Virus record (IMG/VR): IMGVR_UViG_3300045988_156524
DNA from: a virus
Taxonomy: Duplodnaviria > Heunggongvirae > Uroviricota > Caudoviricetes
DNA length: 64,000 bases
Reading direction: 5' to 3' (one strand)
Part shown: positions 3,324 through 28,443 of the stretch, piece after piece
Numbering within the stretch: the stretch's first letter is position 1
Layout of the letters: each line of letters begins with the position of its first letter
Made by a program: the position numbers and the translations under genes
Notes under the pieces: generated by a model
The model's input: only the letters and a program-made list of their open reading frames with translations
Told to the model about the DNA's origin: nothing
The model's database searches: none

Positions 3324-3324
3324 C

Positions 3325-5606: not shown

Positions 5607-5617
5607 GGCGTAACAGG

Positions 5618-8605
5618 ATGAGCTTAAGCGATCAGGTGGTAATGGCCACCAGCATAGAAACGCTGATCGAGCTGCTAAAGAACCTGCCCGGTTATGGGCG
5701 GGTTTCGTATGTGGTGACAGCGAAGGGAGACGAGGTAAAAACAGCGTTTGATATCGTCGATGCCTCAGCTCTTTTGGTATCCAATACTCTGGATGGGAAA
5801 ATTAATCCTGACTATCCCCAGGAACTTCAGCCGCGCGACCGGACCCGCGCATCCAGCCTTCTTCAGGTTAACCAGATATCCAAAGATTTGCGGCCTGCTC
5901 AGCTTACTGATTCCGGTTTATCCAGCCATGGTGCGCCGATAATTGGTGAGGACAATGCCGTTGAGTCAGGTAATGGACGGACCATGGGGATCATCAAAGC
6001 CTATCAGGACGGCAATGCGGATCGGTATCGTGAGTACCTGATTGATCATGCGACCGAATTCGGCATACGACCTGAAAAGGTTGAATCAATGACGGCTCCG
6101 GTACTGGTGCGCCGCCGGTTAACCAAGGTTGACCGCGTTCAGTTTGCCAAGGACTCAAATATTTCTGATCTTCAGGAAATGGCAGCCAGTGAAAAGGCTT
6201 TTGTTGATGCCGACAGCATAACACCGGCGATGATGGCGCTTTTTAACCCGTCAGAAAGCGGAGATCTGCTTAGCCGCAGTAATGACGCGTTTATTCGCGG
6301 ATTTATGACGCAAGTTGGTGCCACACAGGCGGCTGGCCTTGTAACGGAAGATGGGCGACCAACGCGGCAACTTGTTGACCGTATACAAAACGCGATCTTT
6401 GCCAAGGCATATAAGGATGCGCGCCTGGTAAGGATGGTTGCAGAAGAACCTGATCCGGATATGCGTAATGTTCTGACGGCGCTTAATGCGGCAGCCAATG
6501 ATTTTGTCCAGATGCAGGCTTTATCAGGAGAAGCGCACAAGCAGGCTGTGACAACTATTGTTGATGGCATTGAGACAGCGGATAGCCTCGATAAAAAGGC
6601 GCTGGCGGCATTGAAAGATGCGGTAGACCTGGTAAGGCAATCGAAGGAGTCAGGCCAGCATATTACCGATGTTATTGCTCAGGGGGATATGTTCAGCGAA
6701 ACGGCCCCGGAAGTGAAAGCACTCGCGTTGTTCATCGTCGCGAATAACCGTAGCGCGAAGCGTATGGCCACCGCCTTTAAGTTGATGGCTCAACGTATCA
6801 ATGATGAGTTACAGCACCAGGGCCAGGCGCTGGGGGATATGTTTGGCGGTGGTGATGTGTCGTTACAGGATATCCTTCGCCAGGTGTCTCAGGAACTGGA
6901 AAACGAAGGCATGCAAGGGATATCCGGCGGTCTTTTCGAGTCCGTTTCCGGCGGTAGTTACAATGGTGTTGCTCCATATACCAGTTTGCTATTACATCGG
7001 GCATCCGGCATCAAAGACATTATTCATCTGATCAGGCTGCTTTCCCGTACAGATCCCCAGGATGAACAGCTTGTACAAGTGCTTGCGCATTTTGTTCGAA
7101 TGCCTGTTGCCGACGTGAAAAAATGGTGCCGATTATTCGGTATCAGCAATTCGTTACTTCGCGGCTTGTTAAATCACGCATCCTCCCTTGGGCGCGATGG
7201 CTTTGACGAGATAGCGCAGGCGATAAAAAACGGAGATATGCCACCAGCTATTGACTGGTTTTCCATTCGCCCAACCAGGGTGAAAGCATTCCTTAGCGCG
7301 GCGCATTCGGCATCACCATTGGCAGAAATGGTTCAGAGGTTGTCGCTCATATTCACAGACCATACCGCGTTGGGTGATCTGACTCTGGACGAGATGAAAG
7401 AAGCCTCCATTCAGTGGGCCGATCAACAAAATGAGGTTAACTATGACTTCTTGCCAGCATTCAGGAAGGCCGTTAGTAAAGCTGATGATGCCCGTGGAAT
7501 TCTGAGGGCATTTAAGGCATTGCAAAGTCAGGTTAATAAACATGTCGGTGATATCGATGGGGTAACGGCGGAAGGCAGGGATATCCTTAAAGAGCACGGC
7601 ATAACGCCAGAGTTTATTGATGAGATCAGGACTGATATGCAGCGTGAGGTCGTATCGTCCCTGCAAATCGTAGCCAGAGCGTTGGCGGATGCTAATCCGA
7701 AGAGTGCGGCCATTGTTAACCGTGTTATTGGTGATATTGAAGCATCGGAGGGCATGGGGGCGCTGAAACTCTTCCTTTCGCGAGCGTTTAATCCTAACGG
7801 CAATATTCTCCCCGGCATTATTGGTGAGGCTAAAAAGTATGTCAGCGAAGAAGAACTTGAGCATCTTGACCAACTACTTAAGCGATTCTCATATAACCCG
7901 CAGACACGCTGGCAAATGAATCAGCAAAGTATGGGTTCGGTCCACGAGAAAGTGTTATCTGCCATGAACAGTGCGATCGCCAACTCATCCGTATCTGAAG
8001 AAAAAGCTCTTGAGTGGGCCGACTCTTTTATCACGGAAGAAGTGGAAGAAGCCCGCGCTGGACAGAATGGTGGGATAGACCTGCGCAAGGAACTTGCTGA
8101 TATTTATCGCCTGACCGGCGGTAAAATTTCGACCTTATCAAAGGTGGTTCACCACCAGGGAAGGGCATATGCAAATATTAATGGTGTTGTTGCTGTCAAT
8201 TTGAACGATGAAAATGCAAGTGCACTGTGGCACGAGCTGGGTCATCATCTTGAGTACAGTAACCCTGGTTTGTTAGAGAAAGCCCGGTCATTCCTGAAGG
8301 CCAATGTTGAAGGGGATAAGCCATCTTTCGTTAATATCGGTGGGCGTGGCAAGCCTGAATGGTGCTTCAGATCTCGATTGAGTAATATTTATATGGCGAA
8401 GGTATACCCGCCAGCCTCAGTAAGTAACACCGGGAAAATTCGGCAGAAATCACCGACTATTTCCAAAACGTCAGCAACGGAAGTATTCTCTATGGCTCTT
8501 CAGTTGTATCATGACAAAGAGGCCGCTGCCGCATCACTGATGAATGGTGACGGATTGCTGGAACTGTTATTAGGTGTGGCAAAGGAGCTAAATAATGCAG
8601 ATTAA
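5618..8605 (+). CDS. ddrB: Large dar-operon protein (995 aa) with an HELGHH zinc-metallopeptidase-like motif
   Basis: ATG 5618; HExxH motif (WHELGHHLEY) near C-terminus; synteny. Confidence 0.5.
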   Translation: MSLSDQVVMATSIETLIELLKNLPGYGRVSYVVTAKGDEVKTAFDIVDASALLVSNTLDGKINPDYPQELQPRDRTRASSLLQVNQISKDLRPAQLTDSGLSSHGAPIIGEDNAVESGNGRTMGIIKAYQDGNADRYREYLIDHATEFGIRPEKVESMTAPVLVRRRLTKVDRVQFAKDSNISDLQEMAASEKAFVDADSITPAMMALFNPSESGDLLSRSNDAFIRGFMTQVGATQAAGLVTEDGRPTRQLVDRIQNAIFAKAYKDARLVRMVAEEPDPDMRNVLTALNAAANDFVQMQALSGEAHKQAVTTIVDGIETADSLDKKALAALKDAVDLVRQSKESGQHITDVIAQGDMFSETAPEVKALALFIVANNRSAKRMATAFKLMAQRINDELQHQGQALGDMFGGGDVSLQDILRQVSQELENEGMQGISGGLFESVSGGSYNGVAPYTSLLLHRASGIKDIIHLIRLLSRTDPQDEQLVQVLAHFVRMPVADVKKWCRLFGISNSLLRGLLNHASSLGRDGFDEIAQAIKNGDMPPAIDWFSIRPTRVKAFLSAAHSASPLAEMVQRLSLIFTDHTALGDLTLDEMKEASIQWADQQNEVNYDFLPAFRKAVSKADDARGILRAFKALQSQVNKHVGDIDGVTAEGRDILKEHGITPEFIDEIRTDMQREVVSSLQIVARALADANPKSAAIVNRVIGDIEASEGMGALKLFLSRAFNPNGNILPGIIGEAKKYVSEEELEHLDQLLKRFSYNPQTRWQMNQQSMGSVHEKVLSAMNSAIANSSVSEEKALEWADSFITEEVEEARAGQNGGIDLRKELADIYRLTGGKISTLSKVVHHQGRAYANINGVVAVNLNDENASALWHELGHHLEYSNPGLLEKARSFLKANVEGDKPSFVNIGGRGKPEWCFRSRLSNIYMAKVYPPASVSNTGKIRQKSPTISKTSATEVFSMALQLYHDKEAAAASLMNGDGLLELLLGVAKELNNAD

Positions 8606-8906
8606 AATCGCAGCGCCATTAGGCGGAGATGCCATTATCGAATTTGATGATAATGAAGAAGTTTCCGGGCGTTTAAGCATTATCTCCGGTGACATTACCG
8701 AGGACATGATCGCTGAAGCCATAGCTGGGGCAAATCCCAATAGCTATATGGGATTCGTTAACACCCTTGATGCTCCCGCAAGTGATGTTCTCCGAACGCT
8801 GCATCTTTACGCTGGCTGGTTTGTTGATTGGCCAGCAGTAGATGGTGGCGATGAGGACGACGACGACGATGATTTTGGTGATCATGTAGACCAGATCGTA
8901 TATTGA
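8595..8906 (+). CDS. Acidic hypothetical protein (103 aa, poly-Asp tail)
   Basis: ATG with AAGGAG RBS, overlaps upstream stop. Confidence 0.4.
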   Translation: MQIKIAAPLGGDAIIEFDDNEEVSGRLSIISGDITEDMIAEAIAGANPNSYMGFVNTLDAPASDVLRTLHLYAGWFVDWPAVDGGDEDDDDDDFGDHVDQIVY

Positions 8907-8937: not shown

Positions 8938-10032
8938 TCACGAGAAACTCTTTTCTGATGTCAGCCAACAGTGCTCGTGCATATCTCTTGGTGGTTTTTC
9001 GACAAATGCCTCTTCAGCCACATCCTGCCAGGGGATTTGTTTAGCCCATTCAGTTATAGCGTTATGGTTTGCCGAGAATAACGGTATTGTATAGGCCTTC
9101 AGCCAGTCTAATGTGCTGGAGTTGTGTTTTTGAGCGTGATGTTTCGCATGGTGTTTGGCGATCACGATCGTAGGCACTACCCATTTACTACCGTCAGTCA
9201 TTGTGAAGTGCATATTACGGGGAACAGATGACTTTTCCATCAACTCCCGAATCCCGGGGAATTTCCCCAAGATCAATCGGCGATATTCATCGCTATTGCG
9301 CCCACCAAACTCTTTGGCTTTGAATTCAAGATATGCTTCAGAAACGAGAGGTGAATCCTCTGTGTTTAGAGTTATCGCCGTGAAAAAACCAGCAGGATTG
9401 TTTTTACTATGGGCCAACCGGTGATGCGAATCATAAAAGTACCCTTTCTCGCGTTCCGATGGTTTCGACAGCAACAGCAGGCGCGAGTCATAATTGGTTA
9501 AATTGCCAGTTATCACTGCATGAGCGCGATCGCTGATTTCCGCCGAGTTAATAACGATGAAAAGATCGTGCGGTCCAGTAAAACCAGCCAGAGACTCTTC
9601 GTTATTCAGACAATAGGTTATATAGACGCATCCCCATGTTTCACTGATATGCACCAACCCTTTGTCAGGGTGTATTCTGAAATAATTGCCAAGAAAAGGG
9701 TGTTTTTGGGTAACTCGCTCCCAATAACGGAACATATAGTCAATTATTGTTTTTCGACAATCGTTAATCGCAGGAGAAACAACCACTGTACGGGAACACG
9801 AATACAGTATTGTTTGCAGGATGCTAATCACTGCCACAATAGAGGTTTCCCCAATACCATGTGGTGTGGTGGCAGTGATTTTGGCTCCGGTGTTCTTTAT
9901 CGCGTTAATAATTTTTGCTTGATGAGGTGTTAACTCAATATCAAGCAACTCTTTTGCTGCCAGTTCCCAATTGTCTTTATACCGTTCTATCAGTGCTAAC
10001 CAGGCAGATTCATTCTGTATACGATTAATCAC
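8938..10032 (-). CDS. PacB-like terminase large-subunit paralog, ATPase domain only, Walker motifs degenerate (364 aa)
   Basis: Aligns with PacB at 30474-31958 (shared block LLLLSKP...[11 protein letters not shown]); Walker A GHGTGKS replaced by PHGIGETS, Walker B IIDEAS by VINSAE. Confidence 0.6.
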   Translation of the reverse strand: MINRIQNESAWLALIERYKDNWELAAKELLDIELTPHQAKIINAIKNTGAKITATTPHGIGETSIVAVISILQTILYSCSRTVVVSPAINDCRKTIIDYMFRYWERVTQKHPFLGNYFRIHPDKGLVHISETWGCVYITYCLNNEESLAGFTGPHDLFIVINSAEISDRAHAVITGNLTNYDSRLLLLSKPSEREKGYFYDSHHRLAHSKNNPAGFFTAITLNTEDSPLVSEAYLEFKAKEFGGRNSDEYRRLILGKFPGIRELMEKSSVPRNMHFTMTDGSKWVVPTIVIAKHHAKHHAQKHNSSTLDWLKAYTIPLFSANHNAITEWAKQIPWQDVAEEAFVEKPPRDMHEHCWLTSEKSFS

Positions 10033-15320: not shown

Positions 15321-18300
15321 ATGAACAAGCTATCTATGGGGGTGTTTCGCTGTTCAAGTGTCAGCGAAATATTGAAATACATTAGGGCAATAACATCTCA
15401 CCGAGCGCCGATTAAATACGGCGTGGAAAAGGTGGAAGGCAAAAGCTATGACCGACTGCGCCGTGAGGCGAATCAGAAGGCGATAGATTTGCTTAATTCG
15501 CTGGTGGACGGCGCGACACTGACAGATGAACAGCGCCAGATCCTGGCTGGGTACACCGGTGAAGGCGGCATTGGCGGGTCCGTCTCCGAATATTACACAC
15601 CAAAGCCGATCGCTGAAGGTGTCTGGGAGATCATGAAGCTCTACGGCGCGGACGTAGGTAACACTCTGGAACCATCGGCGGGAACCGGCGTTTTTAATGA
15701 GACAAAACCGGTTGGTACGGTGATGACCGCGACTGAGATCAGCAGTGTTTCCGGTCGTATAAACCAGCTGTTGCACCCGGAAGACAGCGTACAGATTTCT
15801 CCGTTCGAACAACTGGCTGTAAGCACGCCTAACGATTCATTCGACCATGTTGTGGGTAACGTTCCGTTCGGTGGTCGTGATAACACACGCAACATCGATA
15901 AGCCTTACGCAGAAGAAACGGACATGGGTTCTTACTTCATGCTCCGCATGCTGGACAAGATAAAGCCAGGCGGATTCATGTGCGTGATTGTGCCGCCGTC
16001 CATTGTTTCAGGTTCAAACATGAAGCGGTTACGCCTGCGCCTATCACGGAAAGCTGAATTTCTTGGTGCCCACCGCTTGCCTACCGGTACTTTTGACGCA
16101 AACGGGACCAGTACAGTTGTTGATGTGGTGCTGATGCGCAAACATCCGGCAGAGATGGCTGAGAAAATCCCCCTGGTGGATGAAAGCACTCTCGAATCGG
16201 CAAATGTGCTTTGGCCAACGTTTATTTCTGGCAAGTGGTTTGAAAAGGACGGCCGCCGGTTTGTTCATGGCACCCAGGAAAAGGGCTTCCAGGGGCGTAT
16301 TGAGGTTCGTGCCGACGGTCAGATTGATAACCAGGCTCTTAAAGCGAAGCTGATTCATCGTTTCGAAAGCCGTATCGACTGGTCTTTGCTCGATATGGCT
16401 GAACCGTCACCGACCGCAGACGTTGTTGGTGAAGGGGAAATGCGCCTGATTAATGGCGTATGGCAAAAATATGCTGGTGGTCGCTGGATTGAAGCTGATG
16501 CCGGGAAGGAACTTAAGATCGATGCTGCCAGTTATGGCGCGGATAGCTGGGAGGCTCTTCAGCGTAACCTGACTACAACAGAAGGCCGTCTCGGCATGAC
16601 ATTTACCCAGATGGCAAATGTCCGCGATAAGTACACCACATCAATCAGCGACGATATGGTGCAGCTGGTGGACTGGATTAACAGCCAGCCTGAAAAATAC
16701 CGTGAACGCTTGTATCGCGGGGCGATGATTGGCCGGATGTTAATTGAATATCAGGACATGAAGGCCGCCGGGCATAGTGCTGAACAAATCGAACAGCAGC
16801 GCCTTTCTCTGGTATCCCGTTTGCAGGCAGAGATTGACCGTTTTGGTAACCCCGGTCGCGGTCCGATAGCGAAATTGTCGGGGAGCGGTGCGCGCGCCTG
16901 GTTTGCTTTCCGTGGTGCAATTAAGCTGGATGGCACTATTTCTGACGAGCTGACAGGGAAGCTGGTTACGCATGATTCCAGCGCAAGTTATGACTCCACC
17001 AGCTATCAGGACACCCTGCGTTATCTCTATAGCGATCTCACCCGCGATCCAATCCAGCTCGATGATTTCCGCCTTGCGTTTACCGGCGAACTGCCAGCCA
17101 GTGATGAAGAGTTGCTTAATTTATTGGCCAGCACCCCTGGTATTGCGGTTTCACCGTATGGCGGGATTGTTCCGTTCGCCCGCGCCACCAGCGGCGACAT
17201 TAACGAGATAGTGGCTCCAAAACAGGAATTCCTCGCCACACTCCCCGACGGTCCAGTAAAGAACAACGTCCTTAATCAGCTGGCAGCTATCGAAGAGAAG
17301 CGCATCAAGACGCCAGCAGAGAATATCCGGTTTAAGCTCAATAGCCGTTGGTTCGACCGTTCCGTCATTCTGGAATTTTTGCAGGAAAACGGCTATCCGG
17401 ATCTGCGCTATGTGCAGTCAGTGCAGCTGGAAGGCGACGAAATGGTTTCTGACACCTATCACGGTGGTGATGGTCTGTTCGTCGGGCACCGATACGGTGT
17501 CGTCCAGCGCAAGGATAAAGAAACAGGTGAGATTCGCTACGAGTGGGACCGTAAATCAGGTGAAAACGCGACCGGGTTCCCGGCACAGCTGGAAAAGTAT
17601 CTCAATGGTGCGCGTATCGGTGGCAAAGATAGCGCGACGGCGAACGGCTACCGCGAGCAGATGGCACTGCTTGAGGACCAGTTCAATAAGTGGATCAAGA
17701 CGCACGATCGCTACGATGAGCTGGTTGCCAAATACAACGATGTGTTCAATAGCAATATCCCGTATGAACACTCTGGCGATCCGCTTGGGTTGAAGGGATT
17801 AAGCGGTAAGCGCCAGCCATTTGATTACCAGAATAGCGAGGTGCGCCGACTGTCCGAAGATGGGCGCGGCATCCTGGGCTTCGGCACCGGGCTGGGTAAA
17901 ACCACGACCGCGCTGGCGCTTGAGGCGTTCAACTATGAGAACGGTCGCTCCACCCGTACTGCGTATGTAGTGCCTAAATCAGTGCTGGAAAACTGGTATT
18001 ACGAAGCAAAAGAATTCCTGAGTGAAGAGGCATTCAGTAACTACCTGTTCGTCGGTCTTGATGTGCTGATGGATGGCGATCAGATTCGCCAGGTGCAGGT
18101 GCTCGATGAGAACGGTAAACCTGTTCTTGGTACTGATGGCACTCCAGTTATGCGCGATGCTCTTAAGCTGGCAGATGAAGCCACTATCACGGCGCGGATG
18201 AACGCGATCCCGCACTCAAATTACCGTGCAGTCGTGTTTACCAAAGAACAATACGCCCGCATTCCGCTACGTGATGACACCGTAGATGAGCATGCACAGG

Positions 18301-21300
18301 ATATGCTTTATGACTTCGTTGCCGCCGGACGCGTAGCCAGCGCAATGGACTCCGACTCCCACCGCAAAGAGGCCGCGCGTCGCCGGGTATTGTCGGAGTA
18401 TTCAGATACCGGCACCGAAAAAGCAGAGAAGTATCCGTACTTTGAGGATATGGGCTTCGATAGTGTGATCGCTGACGAAGGTCACAACTACCGCAATAGC
18501 TATAAAAATGGTCGCGAAGCGTCACAACTGGCCTATCTGCCCACCAGCGCGGTGGCGCAATCGGCGCGAGATATGGCAATTAAAAACGCGTACCTGATGA
18601 AAAAGAATGGTGGGCGCGGGCCGGTTCTCCTGACTGCAACGCCAGTCGTTAACACCCCGATCGATGCATACAACATGCTTTCTCATGTTCTGCCGAAGGA
18701 ATACTGGCAGAACATGGGGATCTACGGTCCTGATGACTTCGTTAAATTCTTCGGCAAGACCAGGCTGGAAACGGTACAGAAAATTAGCGGTGAAGTTGAA
18801 GAAAAAATGGCGCTGGTGGGCTTTGAAAACCTTGATGCGCTGCGCGGTATATTCCATCGCTGGGTAACGCTTAAAACGGCGGAAGACGTTAAGGATACCG
18901 TGGAGATCCCGGAGCTGGACGAACACCAGCAGGATGCACCACTTACTGAAGAACAACTGGCGGCGTATGAAGAATTGCGTCAGCAGGCGGAAGCGGCGGC
19001 CAAAGCCAACAATGGCGTAACGACCTCGGTCAATGAAGACGGCGTGATTGAGCACGAGAAAGCCCGTCCGATCTTCTCAATAATCAGGGATATGGACCGC
19101 GTATGTACTGACATGGACCTGTACTATCGCCGGATCACCTATCGTTTCCTGCCGGAGTACGCCGATGCGGTGCAGCAGCTGGCGGACAGTTTGCCTAAAC
19201 AAGCCACCAGCGAAGACGACGACAGTGATGATTCAATCACGCAGCAATCGCAATACTCCCTGATAGATAAGGGCGAGTTTATTCAGTTGCAGGTTCCGGA
19301 AGCGTTCGAGCAGGAAGTGAATAAGCGCCTGGCCAGGTTTGGCATTGACGAACAGACCGTAACTCACCCCGTTACGCCCAAATACGCGAAGCTGATTGCC
19401 ACGCTGAAGGAGTTTTTCCCGGAAGGTAAGCAAATCATCTTCACCGATGAAAAAACGCAGCACCAGAAGCTCAAGCGCATTATCTGCAATGCTCTTAACC
19501 TTGAACCTTCAAAGGTGGGGATACTGAATGCTCAGACGGTTGCCGAGGCAGGTAAAACCGGTAAGAAACTGAAAGCGGTTAAACCGCCGAAAGAGTTACC
19601 GGATGAACCAACAGATGCACAGATAGCGAAATACAACGAGCAAATGGCTCTGTATGACGCCTATATCGCGCAGCAAAATGAAATGTCGTTGGGCGGTCTG
19701 GAAAAGATTGCAGCCGACTTCCAGGAGGGCCGGACTCCGATCATCATCTGCAACAAAAAGGCAGAGGTGGGTATCAACCTGCATCGAGGAACGACTGACA
19801 TCCATCATCTGACGTTGCCATGGACTCCAGCCAGTATTGCGCAACGAAACGGTCGCGGTGCCCGAGTTGGCTCCAACCGTGCAAGCGTTCGCGTTCACTA
19901 CTACTGCGGCAAGGGGTCTTTCGATGAATACCGACTGAAGACGCTGAAGCGTAAAGCAGGCTGGATCTCCGATATCCTCCGTTCAGATAAGTCAGAAATG
20001 GAGAACGCCGACGCCAACGATATGATCGAAATGCAGATGTATACCGCGAAGGATGACGGCGAACGTCTGGCAATGATGCAGGTTCAAATGGATAAGGCGA
20101 AAGCTGCGAAACGCGCTCGCCAGAAAGAACAGGCTACTATCGACCTTCAGAACTACATCAAGGCGCAGCACGCAGCTGGTGAGGATGTGGAGGTACTTAC
20201 CGCTGAATTGGAGCGAAGCAAAGCGGAACTTGAAAAGACCACCGCCGACGTCGCCAAATTCAAACAGGCGGTAATGGCCAAAGCAGCTGATAACGCAGAC
20301 TGGAAAGCCCGCTGGGGTAGCGTCCATCACACAGACCGTATGTTGTTAGCACAGTATCGCGCGTCGTTGAAAAGCGCCATTCAGCGCAAGGCTAATATCT
20401 CTCAGGCCATCTCCCGCTATGAGAAATTATTGAACCGTACTCAGAAGGCCGCGACGGATATCAAACGCCTGCGCCCGCTGGTGGAGGATGCAATAAATAA
20501 AGGCATTCTGGATGTTGATCCTGATCTGGTTAACCATGCGAATGAGTTCCTTGTTATCGGCGATCGCTCATGGCGTGTAGGCCAATACTATGATTGTGCC
20601 GGTGATATCGTTCGCATTAAGTCGCTGGACTTCGACAGCCAGCGCGCAGACGTGGAGATCATCTTTACCTTCAAAGGCACCAAATCGGGTAACTGGGATG
20701 TGAAGACGCTGGATAAACAGGTTGATGTAACTCCCGATGAAGATGCTGTTATGCAGAAAATCAGTGGTGGCGTCTCCATCGCCGGGATTAACGACATCGT
20801 TTCCTGTGACGATTTCTACCGTTTCCAGCAGCGCGGCATGATCAAAATCACTGACTCATACGGCGTTCAGACTACAGAGTCAGGCTATAGCATTGATTTT
20901 GTTGGTACCTATACGGACCCACTGAAGCATGCGGTTTACCCGGATCGCCGTGACGGCGCGCTGAAGTCGTCAATTGCAAAATGGGTGCTTGGTATGATGT
21001 CGGAAGGGAATAACCGCCAGATCCGTTCGGCAGAAACATTCCTGGTTGAACTGTTTGGCTCCAATTATGGCGATGTAATCGCGTCATACGGAGATACGCT
21101 ATCCCCTGAAGCAATTCAGGAGAAAATAGCGGATGCGATCGCCAGAATGCCGGAAAAAACAAGCCAGGGGGCTACTCGTAACGGGGATTCTGAACTTGAA
21201 GTCACCAATGCCATTTTCGGTACCAATGAGTTCCGGGCGTCAGATTATGAGATCACCACAGCACAGTTTGGCACCATTGGCATTTACAGCAATAAAGACG

Positions 21301-22088
21301 AGATCAAGCAGACAATGGACGCAGCAAGCGCGCGCATTGCAGCAGAACGGAAAGCCAATCTGAATCATGCAGTCGCCGCGCTGACTCAATCGTGGGTAAC
21401 AGCAATCAGGGAGGCCGCCACCACAGGGAAAATCACACCGGCAATTGCGGATGTCGTAAACGACGGCTCTAAATTTATGGATGCCTATCAAATGGATGCG
21501 GTGCAGTTGCCATCAGCCTATGGGCAACTCAGCTATCGCATGACCTACAACCTGGTATCAATGTTTACCGACCTTGCCATCCTTGGGCTGGTGGATCTTA
21601 ACGAGGTTACGCCGGAATTGCTCAGCATGCGCAAGAATCATGTGGAGATATTGCACAGAATTAACACGGTACTTGCCGGGCGCACCGATGAAGAGAAACA
21701 GGCAGACGCTGATCGGATAAACCTGGCCCTTGGCAACATCACGGAGGAAGAAATTGCCGCCAGAAACGAGAAACAAGAAGAGTTATCATCAATACAGGGT
21801 GATGCCACCAGCATAGCTCAGTCTCTTGGTCTGAATTATCGCGTATCCACCGCCGACCTGAAGATGATGTACGCACCAAAATTCGCCGCTGGCGAGGTAT
21901 TTGGGCTTCAGGAAGCCTCCGGCATGAAAGGGGTTCTTTTCCGTGCGAAAGACGCAATCAAGGCGAAATTCGGCGCTCGCTGGTTGCCAGCGAAGGCGAA
22001 GAACAGCGACTTCCCAGGTAACTGGTGGATTATCGAGACAAAACACAACGTGGCGGACGTTCTGGCCGTCATCCAACAATACGCATAA
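15321..22088 (+). CDS. darB: DarB-like antirestriction protein: N6-methyltransferase-like plus SF2 helicase-like (2255 aa)
   Basis: EPSAGTGVF (SAM motif I), VGNVPFGG (motif IV variant), GFGTGLGKTT (Walker A), IADEGHNYRN (DExH); size matches P1 DarB. Confidence 0.85.
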   Translation: MNKLSMGVFRCSSVSEILKYIRAITSHRAPIKYGVEKVEGKSYDRLRREANQKAIDLLNSLVDGATLTDEQRQILAGYTGEGGIGGSVSEYYTPKPIAEGVWEIMKLYGADVGNTLEPSAGTGVFNETKPVGTVMTATEISSVSGRINQLLHPEDSVQISPFEQLAVSTPNDSFDHVVGNVPFGGRDNTRNIDKPYAEETDMGSYFMLRMLDKIKPGGFMCVIVPPSIVSGSNMKRLRLRLSRKAEFLGAHRLPTGTFDANGTSTVVDVVLMRKHPAEMAEKIPLVDESTLESANVLWPTFISGKWFEKDGRRFVHGTQEKGFQGRIEVRADGQIDNQALKAKLIHRFESRIDWSLLDMAEPSPTADVVGEGEMRLINGVWQKYAGGRWIEADAGKELKIDAASYGADSWEALQRNLTTTEGRLGMTFTQMANVRDKYTTSISDDMVQLVDWINSQPEKYRERLYRGAMIGRMLIEYQDMKAAGHSAEQIEQQRLSLVSRLQAEIDRFGNPGRGPIAKLSGSGARAWFAFRGAIKLDGTISDELTGKLVTHDSSASYDSTSYQDTLRYLYSDLTRDPIQLDDFRLAFTGELPASDEELLNLLASTPGIAVSPYGGIVPFARATSGDINEIVAPKQEFLATLPDGPVKNNVLNQLAAIEEKRIKTPAENIRFKLNSRWFDRSVILEFLQENGYPDLRYVQSVQLEGDEMVSDTYHGGDGLFVGHRYGVVQRKDKETGEIRYEWDRKSGENATGFPAQLEKYLNGARIGGKDSATANGYREQMALLEDQFNKWIKTHDRYDELVAKYNDVFNSNIPYEHSGDPLGLKGLSGKRQPFDYQNSEVRRLSEDGRGILGFGTGLGKTTTALALEAFNYENGRSTRTAYVVPKSVLENWYYEAKEFLSEEAFSNYLFVGLDVLMDGDQIRQVQVLDENGKPVLGTDGTPVMRDALKLADEATITARMNAIPHSNYRAVVFTKEQYARIPLRDDTVDEHAQDMLYDFVAAGRVASAMDSDSHRKEAARRRVLSEYSDTGTEKAEKYPYFEDMGFDSVIADEGHNYRNSYKNGREASQLAYLPTSAVAQSARDMAIKNAYLMKKNGGRGPVLLTATPVVNTPIDAYNMLSHVLPKEYWQNMGIYGPDDFVKFFGKTRLETVQKISGEVEEKMALVGFENLDALRGIFHRWVTLKTAEDVKDTVEIPELDEHQQDAPLTEEQLAAYEELRQQAEAAAKANNGVTTSVNEDGVIEHEKARPIFSIIRDMDRVCTDMDLYYRRITYRFLPEYADAVQQLADSLPKQATSEDDDSDDSITQQSQYSLIDKGEFIQLQVPEAFEQEVNKRLARFGIDEQTVTHPVTPKYAKLIATLKEFFPEGKQIIFTDEKTQHQKLKRIICNALNLEPSKVGILNAQTVAEAGKTGKKLKAVKPPKELPDEPTDAQIAKYNEQMALYDAYIAQQNEMSLGGLEKIAADFQEGRTPIIICNKKAEVGINLHRGTTDIHHLTLPWTPASIAQRNGRGARVGSNRASVRVHYYCGKGSFDEYRLKTLKRKAGWISDILRSDKSEMENADANDMIEMQMYTAKDDGERLAMMQVQMDKAKAAKRARQKEQATIDLQNYIKAQHAAGEDVEVLTAELERSKAELEKTTADVAKFKQAVMAKAADNADWKARWGSVHHTDRMLLAQYRASLKSAIQRKANISQAISRYEKLLNRTQKAATDIKRLRPLVEDAINKGILDVDPDLVNHANEFLVIGDRSWRVGQYYDCAGDIVRIKSLDFDSQRADVEIIFTFKGTKSGNWDVKTLDKQVDVTPDEDAVMQKISGGVSIAGINDIVSCDDFYRFQQRGMIKITDSYGVQTTESGYSIDFVGTYTDPLKHAVYPDRRDGALKSSIAKWVLGMMSEGNNRQIRSAETFLVELFGSNYGDVIASYGDTLSPEAIQEKIADAIARMPEKTSQGATRNGDSELEVTNAIFGTNEFRASDYEITTAQFGTIGIYSNKDEIKQTMDAASARIAAERKANLNHAVAALTQSWVTAIREAATTGKITPAIADVVNDGSKFMDAYQMDAVQLPSAYGQLSYRMTYNLVSMFTDLAILGLVDLNEVTPELLSMRKNHVEILHRINTVLAGRTDEEKQADADRINLALGNITEEEIAARNEKQEELSSIQGDATSIAQSLGLNYRVSTADLKMMYAPKFAAGEVFGLQEASGMKGVLFRAKDAIKAKFGARWLPAKAKNSDFPGNWWIIETKHNVADVLAVIQQYA

Positions 22089-22121: not shown

Positions 22122-22562
22122 ATGGCCACACTATCTGATACAATAAAACCGAATAAAACATATCTTGAGGCGGTACTCCGTACAGCGTTGTTAGGAAAGA
22201 CAGAAGACGAATACGTTGATTTCTTCCTGTCAGGGCTACGCGGGCGATTACTGAAAAATCCCCGCCTGTACCGCAGCTATGGTCCATACTGGCCGGAAAT
22301 TAAAAAATTATTACTGGAGCGCGGTTATGGTAATTTCGGTCGTCTCGTTGACCGTGACGTTCGCAAAATTTACCGTTATGACCGCCCGGCGCTAACACTC
22401 ATAGCCGCGACGCTCTACAGCCAGGAGCGTTTTGATAATGGTCAGATATACTCAGCCTGGCATTTACTGCCAGTGCCTGAAGAAGTTGACGACCAGGACT
22501 ATGAGTTTGAGTCTTACGATTTGGAAGTTGAAGCCTTGGCACAGGCTGGAGAGAAAACTTGA
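22122..22562 (+). CDS. ulx: Hypothetical protein upstream of lxc (146 aa)
   Basis: ATG ORF immediately after darB; synteny (from memory). Confidence 0.45.
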   Translation: MATLSDTIKPNKTYLEAVLRTALLGKTEDEYVDFFLSGLRGRLLKNPRLYRSYGPYWPEIKKLLLERGYGNFGRLVDRDVRKIYRYDRPALTLIAATLYSQERFDNGQIYSAWHLLPVPEEVDDQDYEFESYDLEVEALAQAGEKT

Positions 22563-22807
22563 AAAAGCGATACTACACAGTAAAGCATGGGACGCTACGA
22601 GCATTACAAGAGTTTGCTGATAAGCATAACGTTGAGGTGCGCAGGGAAGGGGGAAGTAAAGCTCTGCGCATGTACCGCCCGGACGGGAAATGGCGGACGG
22701 TGGTCGATTTCAAAACTAACAGTGTTCCCCAGGGCGTCCGCGATCGGGCATTCGAAGAATGGGAGCAGATCATCATAGATAACGCATTGCTCCTGAATGC
22801 AGATTGA
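22559..22807 (+). CDS. lxc: Small basic protein, putative C1 co-repressor Lxc/Bof-like (82 aa)
   Basis: TTG start overlaps ulx stop; size and position match P1 lxc as I recall. Confidence 0.45.
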   Translation: MKKRYYTVKHGTLRALQEFADKHNVEVRREGGSKALRMYRPDGKWRTVVDFKTNSVPQGVRDRAFEEWEQIIIDNALLLNAD

Positions 22808-22808
22808 C

Positions 22809-22837
22809 AATTTTGCCCGGAATTACCGGGCAAAATT
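22809..22837. terminator. Bidirectional terminator between lxc and the convergent toxSAS gene
   Basis: AATTTTGCCCGG-aatta-CCGGGCAAAATT hairpin. Confidence 0.65.
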
Positions 22838-23184
22838 AAGCAACTATCCTTCGTTACGAAGATGCTTATCTAAGAATTTTGTAAACTGGTTTGTTGAGCC
22901 AAAATAGTTGGGGTAGGCTTTTTTTAGTGACTTAATGTTATCTGTAGCAACGAGAACAGATATCAATACATTAGGATTAGAATCGTCTTTATTTAAGGCC
23001 TCAAGGGCTTCATCTGCTTCTTTTGTTTTAAATGCGCGAACAGACACTAGGAACATTTTTTTGTTTTTTGTATTGGGCTTGTTTTCTGCATTTCTCATTG
23101 TTACTAAGTAATGCCCCTTATGATTTTTTGGCAACTTCTTAATCAAATTCGCGTCAGAAGTTAAATTTAAGGCGATGGTGTATG

Positions 23185-23193
23185 TGCTTAGTT
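23185..23193. repeat. IS10 target-site duplication, left copy TGCTTAGTT
   Basis: Identical 9-mer at 24523-24531 flanking the IS. Confidence 0.9.
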
Positions 23194-24522
23194 CTGATGA
23201 ATCCCCTAATGATTTTTATCAAAATCATTAAGTTAAGGTGGATACACATCTTGTCATATGATCAAATGGTTTCGCCAAAAATCAATAATCAGACAACAAA
23301 ATGTGCGAACTCGATATTTTACACGACTCTCTTTACCAATTCTGCCCCGAATTACACTTAAAACGACTCAACAGCTTAACGTTGGCTTGCCACGCCTTAC
23401 TTGACTGTAAAACTCTCACTCTTACCGAACTTGGCCGTAACCTGCCAACCAAAGCGAGAACAAAACATAACATCAAACGAATCGACCGATTGTTAGGTAA
23501 TCGTCACCTCCACAAAGAGCGACTCGCTGTATACCGTTGGCATGCTAGCTTTATCTGTTCGGGCAATACGATGCCCATTGTACTTGTTGACTGGTCTGAT
23601 ATCCGTGAGCAAAAACGGCTTATGGTATTGCGAGCTTCAGTCGCACTACACGGTCGTTCTGTTACTCTTTATGAGAAAGCGTTCCCGCTTTCAGAGCAAT
23701 GTTCAAAGAAAGCTCATGACCAATTTCTAGCCGACCTTGCGAGCATTCTACCGAGTAACACCACACCGCTCATTGTCAGTGATGCTGGCTTTAAAGTGCC
23801 ATGGTATAAATCCGTTGAGAAGCTGGGTTGGTACTGGTTAAGTCGAGTAAGAGGAAAAGTACAATATGCAGACCTAGGAGCGGAAAACTGGAAACCTATC
23901 AGCAACTTACATGATATGTCATCTAGTCACTCAAAGACTTTAGGCTATAAGAGGCTGACTAAAAGCAATCCAATCTCATGCCAAATTCTATTGTATAAAT
24001 CTCGCTCTAAAGGCCGAAAAAATCAGCGCTCGACACGGACTCATTGTCACCACCCGTCACCTAAAATCTACTCAGCGTCGGCAAAGGAGCCATGGATTCT
24101 AGCAACTAACTTACCTGTTGAAATTCGAACACCCAAACAACTTGTTAATATCTATTCGAAGCGAATGCAGATTGAAGAAACCTTCCGAGACTTGAAAAGT
24201 CCTGCCTACGGACTAGGCCTACGCCATAGCCGAACGAGCAGCTCAGAGCGTTTTGATATCATGCTGCTAATCGCCCTGATGCTTCAACTAACATGTTGGC
24301 TTGCGGGCGTTCATGCTCAGAAACAAGGTTGGGACAAGCACTTCCAGGCTAACACAGTCAGAAATCGAAACGTACTCTCAACAGTTCGCTTAGGCATGGA
24401 AGTTTTGCGGCATTCTGGCTACACAATAACAAGGGAAGACTCACTCGTGGCTGCAACCCTGCTTACTCAAAATCTATTCACACATGGTTACGTTTTGGGG
24501 AAATTATGAGGGGATCTCTCAG
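23194..24522 (+). mobile_element. IS10 (IS4 family), complete, 1329 bp
   Basis: Ends CTGATGAATCCCCTAATGATTTT ... GGGGATCTCTCAG; 402-aa transposase; perfect 9-bp TSD. Confidence 0.95.
23301..24509 (+). CDS. IS10 transposase (402 aa)
   Basis: MCELDILHDSLYQFCPELHLKRLNSL... recognised as the IS10/Tn10 transposase. Confidence 0.95.
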   Translation: MCELDILHDSLYQFCPELHLKRLNSLTLACHALLDCKTLTLTELGRNLPTKARTKHNIKRIDRLLGNRHLHKERLAVYRWHASFICSGNTMPIVLVDWSDIREQKRLMVLRASVALHGRSVTLYEKAFPLSEQCSKKAHDQFLADLASILPSNTTPLIVSDAGFKVPWYKSVEKLGWYWLSRVRGKVQYADLGAENWKPISNLHDMSSSHSKTLGYKRLTKSNPISCQILLYKSRSKGRKNQRSTRTHCHHPSPKIYSASAKEPWILATNLPVEIRTPKQLVNIYSKRMQIEETFRDLKSPAYGLGLRHSRTSSSERFDIMLLIALMLQLTCWLAGVHAQKQGWDKHFQANTVRNRNVLSTVRLGMEVLRHSGYTITREDSLVAATLLTQNLFTHGYVLGKL

Positions 24523-24531
24523 TGCTTAGTT
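24523..24531. repeat. IS10 target-site duplication, right copy TGCTTAGTT
   Basis: Read directly. Confidence 0.9.
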
Positions 24532-25411
24532 TCCTCCGTACAGATAAAGTCCGTTCCAGCTCTTTAAGCTCGCCTTCATACTGAGATACAACTAGCTCAT
24601 CAAGAGTGCAGGCTTTTTCGTCGTGCGCTACAAGACATCCGGCTAGATAGAAAAATCGTCTCCATTCTGGATGCCCTTCACTTGAAGTTTTCAGCTTGAT
24701 ACCTTCAAGGGTATCAATTATTTCAAGGCTAGTAGCCCAAGCATGCTGCAATTGAGTTCTTAACTGTATCTCAATCTTTGTTTTTCGCCACGGATATTGA
24801 TCCTCTTTCTGATCGAAGCAACTGTATGCAAGGTGGATTCCACTATAGCCGCTGTCTTTGGGAGTAAGATAATCATACTCTTTAACAATCCTATGAACAG
24901 ATTTGCTTTTTAAAAGACGTTCCTTTAGCTGTATCAACTGGTCTAAGTTTCTGACAATGGCCCTACATCCGCCAACGTCCTGCATCCGTGTTAATTTAAT
25001 TGCATTGCTAGTTCTGCCTCCATCAAGACTAGGACGCTCTAGTTTATCTATTATGGTAGAAAGTCGCTTAAGTCTTCTTGCAACGAGAATCTTTTTGTCC
25101 TTGTCAACCTTAGCAGCTGCTCTTGCTAAATGATTTTTCATGAGCATTAATGGATAAAGATGCAGCTCACGGAAATTTTGTATCATTTCAATAGATTGCT
25201 GCCTTTCTTCGTCACTACACCCGTGCCTTATCAATTGAGCAGCCCTATCAATTTGAGATTTTGAATATTTCAACTTGCATTTTTGACTTTGATAAACTTC
25301 ATTCCCCATTGCTTTCATCCATTTTAAATGATTTACATGCTGTTACATCTAATGATAAAGCGGTTAGAAAATCAATGGAGAATGTAACCACAAAATTACT
25401 GTATGTAATTG

Positions 25412-26053
25412 TTAAAAATAATTATGCTTGCCTGTTAATACCCCTTTCGGCACTTTTTTTTGTTCCAGTATCTGGGTGCCCAGAATTATGTTAATCAGTG
25501 GACTTAGTAACGATGGTTCTTGGCGGGCCTCAACTTCTCCAGCCATTGCCCTGATGTAGTCGGCGCTGGCAACGTTGTTGTATTCCGTCGCAAAGCAACA
25601 TAGTAACGTCAGAACATGCTCTGTCGTTATTTCGCTCCAGTTGATGTTGAAAAATTCATCGCCTTTTTTATCGTGTTCGGAATCGAAGATGCTTTGGTGG
25701 AGAATGTATTTGCCGGATTCCTTGCGCGGTAACTTGATTGCTTTCTGGCGTTCCAGCTCCTTATAAATCTGCATTGCCTCAATTAGTACCGGCCTGCCGT
25801 TCATGAAGGGATCGCGCAACCTTACACGCTGGCCAACTCGACCAGTAATAAAGCTGTTTTCCTCTTCCACCAGCACGATAAAACCCTTTTCCTCTTTTTC
25901 TCGCAATTCGCGCAGCAGCTGGAGTTCCATATCGCGGCGGCGTTCAGGGTAGCTGGTCCGCTCAGCCATTATCAGCTCGTTATTGATCCATGCAGCAGTC
26001 ATTGACGCCGGTTTGCCGACGCTCATCGAAACAACGCATATTTTCTTATCCAT
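25412..26053 (-). CDS. mat: Hypothetical protein at the P1 mat position (213 aa)
   Basis: ATG 26053 with AGGGGG RBS; synteny between ref and the res-mod slot. Confidence 0.4.
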   Translation of the reverse strand: MDKKICVVSMSVGKPASMTAAWINNELIMAERTSYPERRRDMELQLLRELREKEEKGFIVLVEEENSFITGRVGQRVRLRDPFMNGRPVLIEAMQIYKELERQKAIKLPRKESGKYILHQSIFDSEHDKKGDEFFNINWSEITTEHVLTLLCCFATEYNNVASADYIRAMAGEVEARQEPSLLSPLINIILGTQILEQKKVPKGVLTGKHNYF

Positions 26054-26183
26054 AGCGCCCCCTACAAAAAAGAAAAGCCACCAGCGGCGGCTTAGCAATA
26101 CAACTGAAGGTAGCGCCCGGTACTCAGACTGTGCCGTCCATGGAATATTTGAAAAGGGATCCATCCGTACCGGGCATGTGATG

Positions 26184-26206
26184 ATTCTGACTGAAGTCAC
26201 TTGTCA
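26184..26206 (-). promoter_or_regulatory. Candidate late promoter for mat (TGACAAGTGACT, 5 nt, CAGAAT on minus strand)
   Basis: Motif family member. Confidence 0.35.
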
Positions 26207-26242
26207 GTTGTCAATCATTTATCATTAAAAATAATATATTTA

Positions 26243-26803
26243 TTAGTGCATGATGTTTGCCATCTCATAGGCGTCAGCCAGTAACTCCATCTCTGACTTG
26301 TTCAGCAGGGTGAATTCTTTCTTGCCTCCAACCACACCATCGGCATGAACAGGGACCAGCCAGGGGTATTTTGCTCTTACTTCAGCCGGTGCTGCATGCT
26401 GGTGGTGCCATCTACAAAGTGGCAATTGCTTTTTATGACAACCCGGCGCGGTACGACCGGCGATATGGTGCAGAGACACCTCATTAGATATTACTCCATG
26501 CATATAGCAGGCAATGCAGGGGAGAGTGCCAAGAGCATTGGCGATGCGCCGTTCCTCCGCCGTTGGTGTTCTCCCCTTCAAGCCACGAGATTTTATTTTT
26601 ACCGCACTTTTCCGCGTTTTGCTGGCTGGTGGGCGCTCTTTCTGTTTAGCGATACGGCGGTCGATAGAATCCCGCATTTTCTGATATTGCGATTCTCGCC
26701 AGGCGGGGTCAGCCAACTTTTCCCGTTGCCGAGCGATCGCTCGTTCTCTGGCTGCCTTCTGCCACTCGCGGCGCTGTTCAAGTTTTTGTTCGATTGTTTT
26801 CAT
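26243..26803 (-). CDS. ref: Recombination enhancement function, HNH endonuclease (186 aa)
   Basis: Cys/His-rich HNH region (CIACYMHG...HH...CRWHH); size and position as P1 Ref. Confidence 0.8.
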   Translation of the reverse strand: MKTIEQKLEQRREWQKAARERAIARQREKLADPAWRESQYQKMRDSIDRRIAKQKERPPASKTRKSAVKIKSRGLKGRTPTAEERRIANALGTLPCIACYMHGVISNEVSLHHIAGRTAPGCHKKQLPLCRWHHQHAAPAEVRAKYPWLVPVHADGVVGGKKEFTLLNKSEMELLADAYEMANIMH

Positions 26804-26807
26804 ATGG

Positions 26808-26833
26808 CAAAAAAAGGCGGCCTAATGGCCGCC
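26808..26833 (-). terminator. Hairpin plus T-run on minus strand, 5 nt upstream of the ref start codon
   Basis: GGCGGCC-taat-GGCCGCC followed by TTTTTTT on the minus strand. Confidence 0.4.
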
Positions 26834-26900
26834 AATGATGTCAAGGAGTGAAGTAATGGCAACGTCTTCGTAGTTGACAAAAACTGCGGCTAAATTATAG

Positions 26901-26917
26901 CAATCAATTAGAGCAAT
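26901..26917 (-). promoter_or_regulatory. C1 operator-like site upstream of ref
   Basis: Reverse complement ATTGCTCTAATTGATTG, 3 mismatches to consensus. Confidence 0.4.
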
Positions 26918-27049
26918 GGTAGATATTTTGTTTCTCGCGAATCACATTTTTTCACTTCAGTACCTGTGTGCTATACTCCTTCTTGATTGATTGGATGCGG
27001 AATACAAACCCGCTCTTTTGTGCAGCCTGGCTCCTTGCCAGGCTTTTTT

Positions 27050-27361
27050 TTATTTCATCATGGAAGCTGTTAACGCTTTGGACCTTGCTGAACTGATTGA
27101 AAGGGCATTGTTTACCTTACCCAGGAGTTCGCCAAATTCCCCCATCACTCTAGTAAGCCCGCGCCGCGCTTCCTCCTCCGTTGCATTCATCACAAAATGT
27201 TCAGCACTCCGCATGCTTTTAACGGGGAACGCAACAGATATCGAGTCGATATCAGGCATCCTATCGCTCAACTTTACGGTGACAATGACAGATGGCGACA
27301 GAATATTAGTGCTTACAGACAGCACTACATATTTTCCGTCGATGTTGAAATCCTTTCTCAT
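27050..27361 (-). CDS. cra: Small protein downstream of cre (103 aa)
   Basis: ATG ORF co-directional with cre; position matches P1 cra (from memory). Confidence 0.4.
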   Translation of the reverse strand: MRKDFNIDGKYVVLSVSTNILSPSVIVTVKLSDRMPDIDSISVAFPVKSMRSAEHFVMNATEEEARRGLTRVMGEFGELLGKVNNALSISSARSKALTASMMK

Positions 27362-27411
27362 ATGCCACCATAAATATCAAAGAATTAGAGCAATCATTTA
27401 CGTGTTAATGG

Positions 27412-28443
27412 CTAATTGCCATCTTCCAGCAGGCGCACCATTGCCCCTGTTTCACTATCCAGGTTACGGATATAGTTCATGACAATATTTACGTTGGTCC
27501 AGCCACCAGCTTGCATGATCTCCGGTATTGAAACTCCAGCGCGGGCCATATCTCGCGCGGCTCCGACACGGGCACTGTGTCCAGACCAGGCCAGGTATCT
27601 CTGACCAGAGTCATCCTTAGCGCCGTAAATCAATCGATGAGTTGCTTCAAAAATCCCTTCCAGGGCGCGAGTTGATAGCTGGCTGGTGGCAGATGGCGCG
27701 GCAACACCATTTTTTCTGACCCGGCAAAACAGGTAGTTATTCGGATCATCAGCTACACCAGAGACGGAAATCCATCGCTCGACCAGTTTAGTTACCCCCA
27801 GGCTAAGTGCCTTCTCTACACCTGCGGTGCTAACCAGCGTTTTCGTTCTGCCAATATGGATTAACATTCTCCCACCGTCAGTACGTGAGATATCTTTAAC
27901 CCTGATCCTGGAAATTTCGGCTATACGTAACAGGGTGTTATAAGCAATCCCCAGAAATGCCAGATTACGTATATCCTGGCAGCGATCGCTATTTTCCATG
28001 AGTGAACGAACCTGGTCGAAATCAGTGCGTTCGAACGCCAGCGCCTGTTTTGCACGCTCACCGGCATCAACGTTTTCTTTTCGGATCCGTCGCATGACGA
28101 GTGAAACAGCATTGCTGTCACTTGGTCGTGGCAGACCGGACCGACGATGAAGCATATTTAGCTGGCCCAAATGTTGCTGGATAGTTTTCACTGCCAGACC
28201 GCGCGCCTGAAGATATAGAAGATAATCGCGAACATCTTCAGGTTCTGCGGGAAACCACTTCCGGTTATTCAACTTGCACCATGCCGCCCACGACCGGCAA
28301 ACGGACAGAAGCATTTTCCAGGTATGCTCAGAAAACGCCTGGCGATCCCTGAACATGTCCATCAGGTTCTTGCGAACCTCATCACTCGTTGCATCGACCG
28401 GTAATGCAGGCAAATTTTGGTGTACGGTCAGTAAATTGGACAT
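27412..28443 (-). CDS. cre: Cre tyrosine recombinase (343 aa)
   Basis: MSNLLTVHQNLPALPVDATSDEVRKNLMDMFRDRQAFSEHTWKML... recognised; loxP lies 419 bp upstream. Confidence 0.97.
   Translation of the reverse strand: MSNLLTVHQNLPALPVDATSDEVRKNLMDMFRDRQAFSEHTWKMLLSVCRSWAAWCKLNNRKWFPAEPEDVRDYLLYLQARGLAVKTIQQHLGQLNMLHRRSGLPRPSDSNAVSLVMRRIRKENVDAGERAKQALAFERTDFDQVRSLMENSDRCQDIRNLAFLGIAYNTLLRIAEISRIRVKDISRTDGGRMLIHIGRTKTLVSTAGVEKALSLGVTKLVERWISVSGVADDPNNYLFCRVRKNGVAAPSATSQLSTRALEGIFEATHRLIYGAKDDSGQRYLAWSGHSARVGAARDMARAGVSIPEIMQAGGWTNVNIVMNYIRNLDSETGAMVRLLEDGN

Follow-up and report, generated by a model that had tools for sequence, protein, structure and literature searches.

In bacteriophage P1, the res-mod genes make up a region (RD-1; P1 3,469-9,749) that Venturini et al. 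(2019) recognized as a hot spot of variation, one of five; related elements carry other open reading frames (ORFs) in place of res-mod, among them a "putative phosphokinase" in pTZ20_1P (PMC6906374). Among the eight variable regions counted in 54 P1-like elements, res-mod is region 1 (PMC9603915), the same variable locus is shown in Fig. 5 of PMC10865808, and a 2025 preprint lists type III restriction-modification (RM), dGTPase, PrrC, and CapRel among the defense systems of P1-like elements (10.1101/2025.09.12.675607). Analyzed here is the interval between the genes mat and lxc in a 64,000-nt stretch of tailed-phage DNA (IMG/VR record IMGVR_UViG_3300045988_156524; the whole stretch is called the window in the following). 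This interval is very probably the exchangeable cargo region RD-1, occupied here by the toxin-antitoxin gene capRel, which is split by the insertion sequence (IS) IS10, and exchanged by recombination in the flanks. That the slot is exchangeable is already known from its description as RD-1 or variable region 1; the likeness comprises the locus itself, the flanks mat and lxc, the replacement of res-mod, the low GC content, and an occupant referred to as relAP1 or "putative phosphokinase." The published accounts of RD-1 (PMC6906374, PMC9603915, PMC10865808) cover 3 to 54 elements and do not class the occupants as defense systems; they contain no explicit defense-hot-spot label, no empty state, no hairpin, and no breakpoint gradients. 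The empty state, the hairpin, and the breakpoint gradients reported below are increments on a known feature, and the IS10-split allele is a minor new detail on it.

Defense hot spots are reportedly also present in P2-like phages and P4-like satellites, as Rousset et al. are said to have described in 2022; there, too, conserved core genes surround a short region, which is occupied in turn, in otherwise similar elements, by many unrelated anti-phage systems of small size. The P1 slot differs in that it resides on a plasmid prophage, lies between the 3′ ends of two genes, and can be fully empty; further, three of its nine types of occupant have no known link to defense.

Regarding the occupant found in the window, the C-terminal domain of CapRelSJ46 (residues 273-373) autoinhibits the N-terminal, tRNA-pyrophosphorylating toxSAS domain (residues 1-272) until a phage capsid protein binds; residues 1-272 are toxic alone and residues 273-373 rescue in trans (PMC9712102). 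Capsid-triggered defense is known for CapRelSJ46 and two other homologs only (PMC9712102). Bicistronic toxSAS pairs exist as well, for example PhRel/ATphRel of mycobacteriophage Phrann (PMC9712102). The gene found in the window has also been studied as relAP1, the gene through which blaTEM-116* imposes a cost on the host; this cost disappears with null or I179S alleles of relAP1, which have no fitness effect alone, and a clone that included 134 bp of upstream sequence was functional (PMC10865808).

From the ORF listing and megablast, the window can be assigned to the P1-like (Punavirus) phage-plasmids, and its gene order, darB-ulx-lxc-(slot)-mat-ref-c8-cre-cra, agrees with that of P1 (NC_005856: cra-cre-c8-ref-mat-res-mod-lxc-ulx-darB). 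The P1 annotation places mat at 2716-3468, res at 3544-6456, the IS5 in mod at 7652-8846, and lxc at 9750-9998; it thus confirms the premise, on which a sequence-only reading of the window had built, that res-mod lies between mat and lxc in P1. In P7, EcoP7 res-mod is found at the equivalent position. The stop codons of lxc and mat are 2,604 bp apart in the window (22808-25411), and what lies between them is, as had been read from the letters, a RelA/SpoT-type (toxSAS) gene on the minus strand and an IS10, except that the IS10 sits inside the gene and not beside it. All the elements named in the sequence-only reading are present where it had placed them.

What else may occupy the slot was determined by a scan of IMG/VR with the Mat protein, which yielded 80 P1-like loci with 10-kb flanks; mat and lxc were located in each locus and the intervals clustered, for a total of 76 elements that have both flanks: 73 of these loci and, in addition, P1, SJ46, and 673R5. 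Nine unrelated modules of low GC content, each of one to four genes, alternate in these 76 loci with an empty slot. The IMG/VR loci were not de-replicated and the cargo frequencies are, therefore, indicative only: a ThsA-like SIR2_2 protein of 434 aa in 15 loci (∼1.41 kb; PADLOC PDC-S25 at 5e-24); CapRel in 13 loci and the window (∼1.27 kb; PADLOC PDC-S33); a GNAT protein of 202 aa in 10 loci (∼0.9 kb); type III res-mod in eight loci including P1 (5.09 kb; 6.29 kb in P1 with IS5); a PIN_12 protein of 316 aa in five loci (∼1.05 kb; PADLOC PDC-S34, weak); a YaaC-like protein (346 aa) with a nucleoside-deoxyribosyltransferase (NDT)-like protein (169 aa) in four loci (1.70 kb); a DUF2971 protein of 346 aa in four loci (1.20 kb; PADLOC PDC-S31); an EAL protein (229 aa) with an AraC-type regulator (244 aa) in three loci (∼1.75 kb); JukA (3e-66) with a helix-turn-helix (HTH) protein, an antirepressor-like protein, and a lipoprotein in three loci (3.57 kb); and, in 10 loci, an empty slot of 35-45 bp with only a hairpin between the two stop codons. 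Among named phages, RCS47 has the empty slot, Ro157c2YLVW the EAL/HTH type, and SJ46 and vB_EcoM-673R5 have CapRel. The GC content of the cargo is 0.32-0.43 across all types vs. ∼0.50 in the flanks; in the window, the corresponding values are 0.36-0.39 for the parts of capRel vs. ∼0.50 for darB, lxc, and mat.

A replaceable cargo slot swapped between related phages, as the sequence-only reading had supposed, is what this catalogue describes; the comparison across genomes which that reading had proposed shows occupants that differ, with res-mod among the alternatives, rather than the same gene throughout. The reasoning by which it had arrived there was mistaken, because of the two elements thought to be the signature of such a slot, a late promoter and a bidirectional terminator, the first is no boundary at all and the second, a hairpin, is kept in only 29 of the 76 loci. 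Conceivably, nothing was ever exchanged and an ancestral res-mod was simply deleted, toxSAS and IS10 being incidental remnants; P1 and P7, the classical members, both have res-mod at this position. This scenario deserves hardly any credence, however: nine unrelated cargoes and a clean 35-45 bp empty state at one position already refute it, the capRel cargo and res-mod have no common sequence, and the same cargo is found on divergent flanks.

The slot had further been read as one for defense genes, which is supported for six of the nine cargo types; res-mod, SIR2, CapRel, DUF2971, JukA, and, weakly, PIN match known or candidate defense models, whereas the GNAT, YaaC/NDT, and EAL/AraC types match no PADLOC model. 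It is possible, though unlikely, that the slot is a general hot spot for accessory ("moron") genes, where any small self-expressed low-GC module is tolerated between gene 3′ ends and where defense genes merely are the commonest phage modules of that kind. The three types without a match would be expected from such a hot spot, the JukA-type module brings with it an antirepressor-like protein and a lipoprotein, and the literature counts RD-1 among five to eight variable regions of a general kind, tied to low GC and to the mobilization of resistance genes (PMC6906374; PMC9603915). Yet known or candidate defense families are matched in 49 of the 66 occupied slots, two of the occupants (type III RM and CapRel) are validated defense types, no resistance or virulence gene is present in the slot in any of the 76 loci, and the cargoes without a match could themselves be defense systems not described so far. 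Examples of such cargoes are found at L021:7016-8719 (YaaC/NDT), L006:3449-4344 (GNAT), and L038:10754-12497 (EAL/AraC). Since the slot is otherwise filled by defense genes, these modules are candidates for untested functions. An anti-phage role of the untested cargoes in general is putative.

The two borders of the slot are of different character. On the lxc side, elements with different cargo cease to be similar at the lxc stop codon. In 73 of 74 related loci the identity of the Lxc protein is 100%, and nucleotide diversity within lxc drops from 0.054 over the 50 slot-proximal nt to 0.003 further in. On the mat side there is a gradient, with a diversity of ≤0.03 over most of mat and of 0.06, 0.07, 0.14, and 0.25 in its last 200 nt. 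Breakpoints had been expected at the presumed terminator and at the mat 3′ end; they are indeed found at the lxc stop and in the 3′ region of mat, but on the mat side they are scattered over the last ∼150 nt of the gene. The last ∼20 residues of Mat vary by cargo type, which suggests that the Mat C-terminus either tolerates recombination tracts or travels along with them. In terms of conservation, then, a cargo-varying Mat C-terminus (window 25412-25560) stands opposite an invariant Lxc (window 22559-22807). An identical Mat C-terminus is shared by res-mod and JukA elements, and likewise by window-type CapRel and GNAT elements; CapRel and GNAT are each paired with several Mat alleles. No pair of elements with different cargo and a flank divergence of ≤0.3%, as would prove a very recent swap, was present in the sample, the minimum being 0.45%, and a search for att-like or terminal repeats flanking the cargo gave only short matches at chance level. 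The mechanism of exchange that fits these patterns, and the most likely one, is ordinary homologous recombination between co-resident P1-like elements, for which near-identical flanks, lxc-ulx-darB on one side and mat on the other, would be used; each new cargo type would go back to rarer illegitimate events at the mat stop or at the hairpin next to lxc.

The hairpin, on which lxc and capRel converge with their 3′ ends, had been called a bidirectional terminator; in view of this convergence, a two-way terminator would make sense at this position. The 12-bp stem is indeed perfect and the folding energies on the two strands are -18.4 and -21.8 kcal/mol, respectively (z-scores -4.3 and -5.4; 0 of 200 shuffles fold equally well); on both strands a T-run precedes the GC stem and AAAATT, an A-run, follows the GC core. 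However, both strands lack a U-tract 3′ of the stem, and the promoter/terminator scan of 22500-26400 did not flag the hairpin. A hairpin of the form GCCCGG-loop-CCGGGC adjoins lxc in the 29 loci already mentioned, which comprise all empty, all GNAT, and all YaaC loci and five with CapRel; the stem is constant and the loop variable across these four slot states, and elsewhere in the intervals the motif has 3 matches in 119 kb. As it is the sole remnant when the slot is empty, the hairpin looks like a part of the backbone and is possibly a terminator or a 3′-end stabilizer, the former label being unproven. The late-promoter-like box, which had been taken as the opposite edge of the slot, is real and identical to LPmat of P1, but it is located at the 5′ end of mat, so that the entire mat gene intervenes between it and the variable interval.

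In one empty slot of only 35 bp (L073:10750-10785), an empty-type mat end meets a hairpin of the window type, GCCCGGTAATTCCGGGC; the junction looks as though a crossover or a precise loss of cargo had taken place inside the hairpin stem. Cargo exchange might accordingly be thought of as site-specific or hairpin-targeted, the hairpin next to lxc serving as a recombination site loosely similar to attC or REP elements; a stem conserved while the loop varies, a motif nearly absent elsewhere in the intervals, and the junction in L073 would all fit. Nevertheless, such a mechanism is very improbable, as six cargo types are without the hairpin, no recombinase accompanies any cargo, direct repeats are not found around the cargo, and the boundary at mat is a gradient of diversity rather than a fixed point.

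The gene in the window becomes legible when IS10 and one copy of the target-site duplication are removed in silico, which restores a single in-frame ORF of 375 aa, counted from MGNEVY, or of 378 aa, counted from an upstream ATG. The restored protein has 74% identity, in a 371-aa alignment, to CapRelSJ46, the 373-aa RelA/SpoT protein that Salmonella phage SJ46 likewise encodes in its lxc-mat slot, and matches PDB 7ZTB (CapRelSJ46) at 4.6e-185 over residues 1-371; the SJ46 protein, in turn, matches Pfam RelA_SpoT at 3e-13 and PADLOC PDC-S33 at 7e-87, the latter covering residues 11-370. Aligned to CapRelSJ46, the window allele retains residues A77, R79, R116, and Y155 as well as the YXXY autoinhibition motif, in the form YPNY. 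Judged by homology, the gene is a capRel-type fused toxSAS toxin-antitoxin; its allele is of the relAP1 type and has, IS10 being removed, 100% DNA identity to the intact gene of IMG/VR locus L004. It resembles CapRelSJ46 in its position in the same slot of a P1-like phage, in its full-length architecture, and in its catalytic residues and YXXY motif; it differs in being split by IS10 after residue 263, which makes a single polypeptide impossible. In vB_EcoM-673R5 (ON470615.2; L002:3869-4968), capRel is annotated as two coding sequences, overlapping ORFs of 185 and 203 aa, which is a frameshift or a sequencing error.

In length, ends, and its single 402-aa transposase the insertion sequence corresponds to IS10, a member of the IS4 family with ∼1,329 bp, imperfect terminal inverted repeats, and one DDE transposase of ∼402 aa; its identity is 98.8% to an annotated IS10 (H24) and 99.9% to the ISVsa5 copy of pECY44-3. 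It interrupts capRel behind residue T263, within the linker that joins toxin and antitoxin domain, and leaves an upstream ORF (24488-25318; 276 aa), which consists of residues 1-263 followed by ERSPHNFPKT from IS10, and a downstream ORF (22844-23146; TTG start at 23146), which consists of residues 276-375 and includes YPNY. The target consensus of IS10 is NGCTNAGCN (PMC4574204); the duplicated TGCTTAGTT fits it at 5 of the 6 specified bases and is one of only five near-consensus IS10 targets in capRel. The simplest reading is that the window insertion inactivates a potentially costly gene. Because CapRel cannot be made as one autoinhibited polypeptide from the cut gene, this copy has most likely lost its function in defense.

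The IS10-split allele is absent from the phage, plasmid, and complete E. coli genome collections searched; the only full-length match in these collections is pECY44-3, where the IS10 sits in mat and not in capRel. Among the 40 best plasmid matches, ∼36 keep capRel intact and ∼4 carry an IS here. Other insertion sequences have independently hit the gene or its surroundings: an end of IS1 lies at capRel nt 810 in L043, 14 nt from the IS10 site of the window and in the same inter-domain linker, ISKpn26 at nt ∼280 in pE148-2, and IS3 at nt ∼970 in p65COLEC-2, while IS1A adjoins capRel in pCD74-2-1. The IS-hit slots have the coordinates L043:8767-9910, L085:785-3121, L086:785-3182, L084:3422-4750, and L087:785-2692. 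Four capRel alleles are cut by an IS, at nt ∼280, 796, 810, and ∼970. Selection for IS insertion in the linker was considered and rejected, four alleles being too few and the IS10 site being among the five near-consensus targets.

A more elaborate scenario is that IS10 has turned the fused CapRel into a working two-gene toxin-antitoxin pair, in which a toxin of residues 1-263 plus 10 aa is made from the native promoter and residues 276-375, made from an outward IS10 promoter, neutralize it in trans. Formally, the cut produces the arrangement of PhRel/ATphRel, where homologs of the two CapRel halves are separate polypeptides; the difference is that the separation in the window is due to a 1.3-kb IS and that expression of the downstream half is only putative. 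The cut falls 9 residues before the experimental boundary (1-272 toxic, 273-373 rescuing; PMC9712102), the toxin fragment keeps A77, R79, R116, and Y155, so that some neutralization seems needed, and in L043 the same linker has been hit independently by IS1, at a distance of 14 nt. Outward promoters have been reported for both ends of IS10 (PMC4574204), and it is the outside end (nt 1) that faces the capRel 3′ fragment, the transposase ATG being at nt 108 of the element as counted from 23194; but the scan of 22500-26400 found no minus-strand promoter at this end, and the sole in-frame start of the 3′ fragment is a TTG without a Shine-Dalgarno sequence, which the internal ATGs lack as well. The position of the cut can be explained by target preference alone, as it is a near-consensus site, one of five in the gene; other natural cuts, at nt ∼280 and ∼970, make for no consistent pattern in the four cases. 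Simple inactivation is viable, the relAP1 null being neutral by itself (PMC10865808), and no other record of the collections searched has the IS10-split allele. Altogether, a functional two-gene pair is improbable. As to the other end of IS10, the inside end, outgoing transcription (window 24523-24560) would run antisense to the toxin fragment; a simple scan detected no promoter at 24523-24560.

Several points weigh against the view favored here, a slot for mostly defensive cargo, exchanged by recombination in the flanks and disabled in the window by IS10. From the similar flank divergence of pairs with the same cargo (median 1.65%) vs. pairs with different cargo (median 1.93%) it follows that cargo reassorts on the backbone, but this comparison is crude and a few of the alignments have gaps or misalignments. 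Homologous recombination is inferred from patterns of diversity only. PDC-S25, S31, S33, and S34 are PADLOC candidate families and not validated systems, the PIN match is weak, and the GNAT, YaaC/NDT, and EAL/AraC modules may mean that the term "defense slot" is too narrow. Further, the toxin fragment in the window keeps all catalytic residues, ends 9 residues short of the experimentally toxic one, and should be toxic according to the published experiment; yet the element exists, for which the favored view does not account.

The features of the interval and its surroundings are collected in Table 1. Beyond mat (ref/c8; window 26243-27400, with its counterpart upstream of mat in L003, L086, L087, and L088), variability is seen as well; a DUF4145 gene adjoins or replaces ref in L086 and L087, transposons adjoin mat in P7 (Tn3) and in SJ46 (Tn1721), and alignment diversity upstream of mat is 0.2-0.36.

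Table 1. Features in and around the mat-lxc interval of the window (positions in the 64,000-nt stretch)
Feature	Position	Strand	Remarks
darB	15321-22088	+	conserved flank
ulx, Ulx-like anti-restriction gene	22122-22562	+	146-aa ORF; position as P1 ulx; right flank
lxc, modulator of C1 repressor	22559-22807	+	82-aa ORF; right-hand border of the slot
Perfect hairpin	22809-22837	.	AATTTTGCCCGG-AATTA-CCGGGCAAAATT; 12-bp arms, 100% complementary, 5-nt loop
capRel 3′ fragment, antitoxin/sensor (pseudo-ZFD) domain	22844-23193	-	removal of IS10 brings it in frame with the 5′ fragment; aligns to CapRelSJ46
Target-site duplication, 9 bp, left copy	23185-23193	.	TGCTTAGTT
IS10 (ISVsa5 in public records)	23194-24522	+	1,329 bp; ends CTGATGAATCCCCT... 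and ...AGGGGATCTCTCAG
IS10 transposase	23301-24509	+	402 aa
Target-site duplication, 9 bp, right copy	24523-24531	.	TGCTTAGTT
capRel 5′ fragment, toxSAS toxin domain	24523-25318	-	residues 1-263 (CapRelSJ46 numbering); homologous start MGNEVY at 25309
mat-capRel spacer	25319-25411	-	93 bp; presumed site of capRel's own promoter region
mat, maturation control	25412-26164	-	left-hand border of the slot; last ∼150 nt mosaic, partly cargo-linked
LPmat late promoter	26184-26202	-	-22 box AAGTGACTT, -10 CAGAAT; identical to P1 LPmat at 2678-2696
Omat, C1 operator controlling mat	26235-26252	-	identical to P1 Omat at 2628-2645
ref	26243-26803	-	
cre	27412-28443	-	

A tool-free reading of raw sequence has, in this case, correctly recognized a real exchangeable cargo site. 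The repeated hits of IS elements on capRel fit the published cost of relAP1 to the host, and alleles that have the toxin domain but no covalently linked antitoxin domain persist in nature, which is unexplained. If the two halves of CapRel did function as a pair in the window, this would be a natural snapshot of the interconversion of fused and bicistronic toxSAS systems, and the independent insertions of IS1 and IS3 that lie behind the toxin domain in other P1-like elements would be instances of the same phenomenon. For the P1-like elements as a group, the catalogue of the slot flags untested anti-phage candidates, namely the 434-aa SIR2 protein, PIN_12, DUF2971, YaaC/NDT, and GNAT, and the P1 slot offers a well-defined and easily engineered context for such modules.

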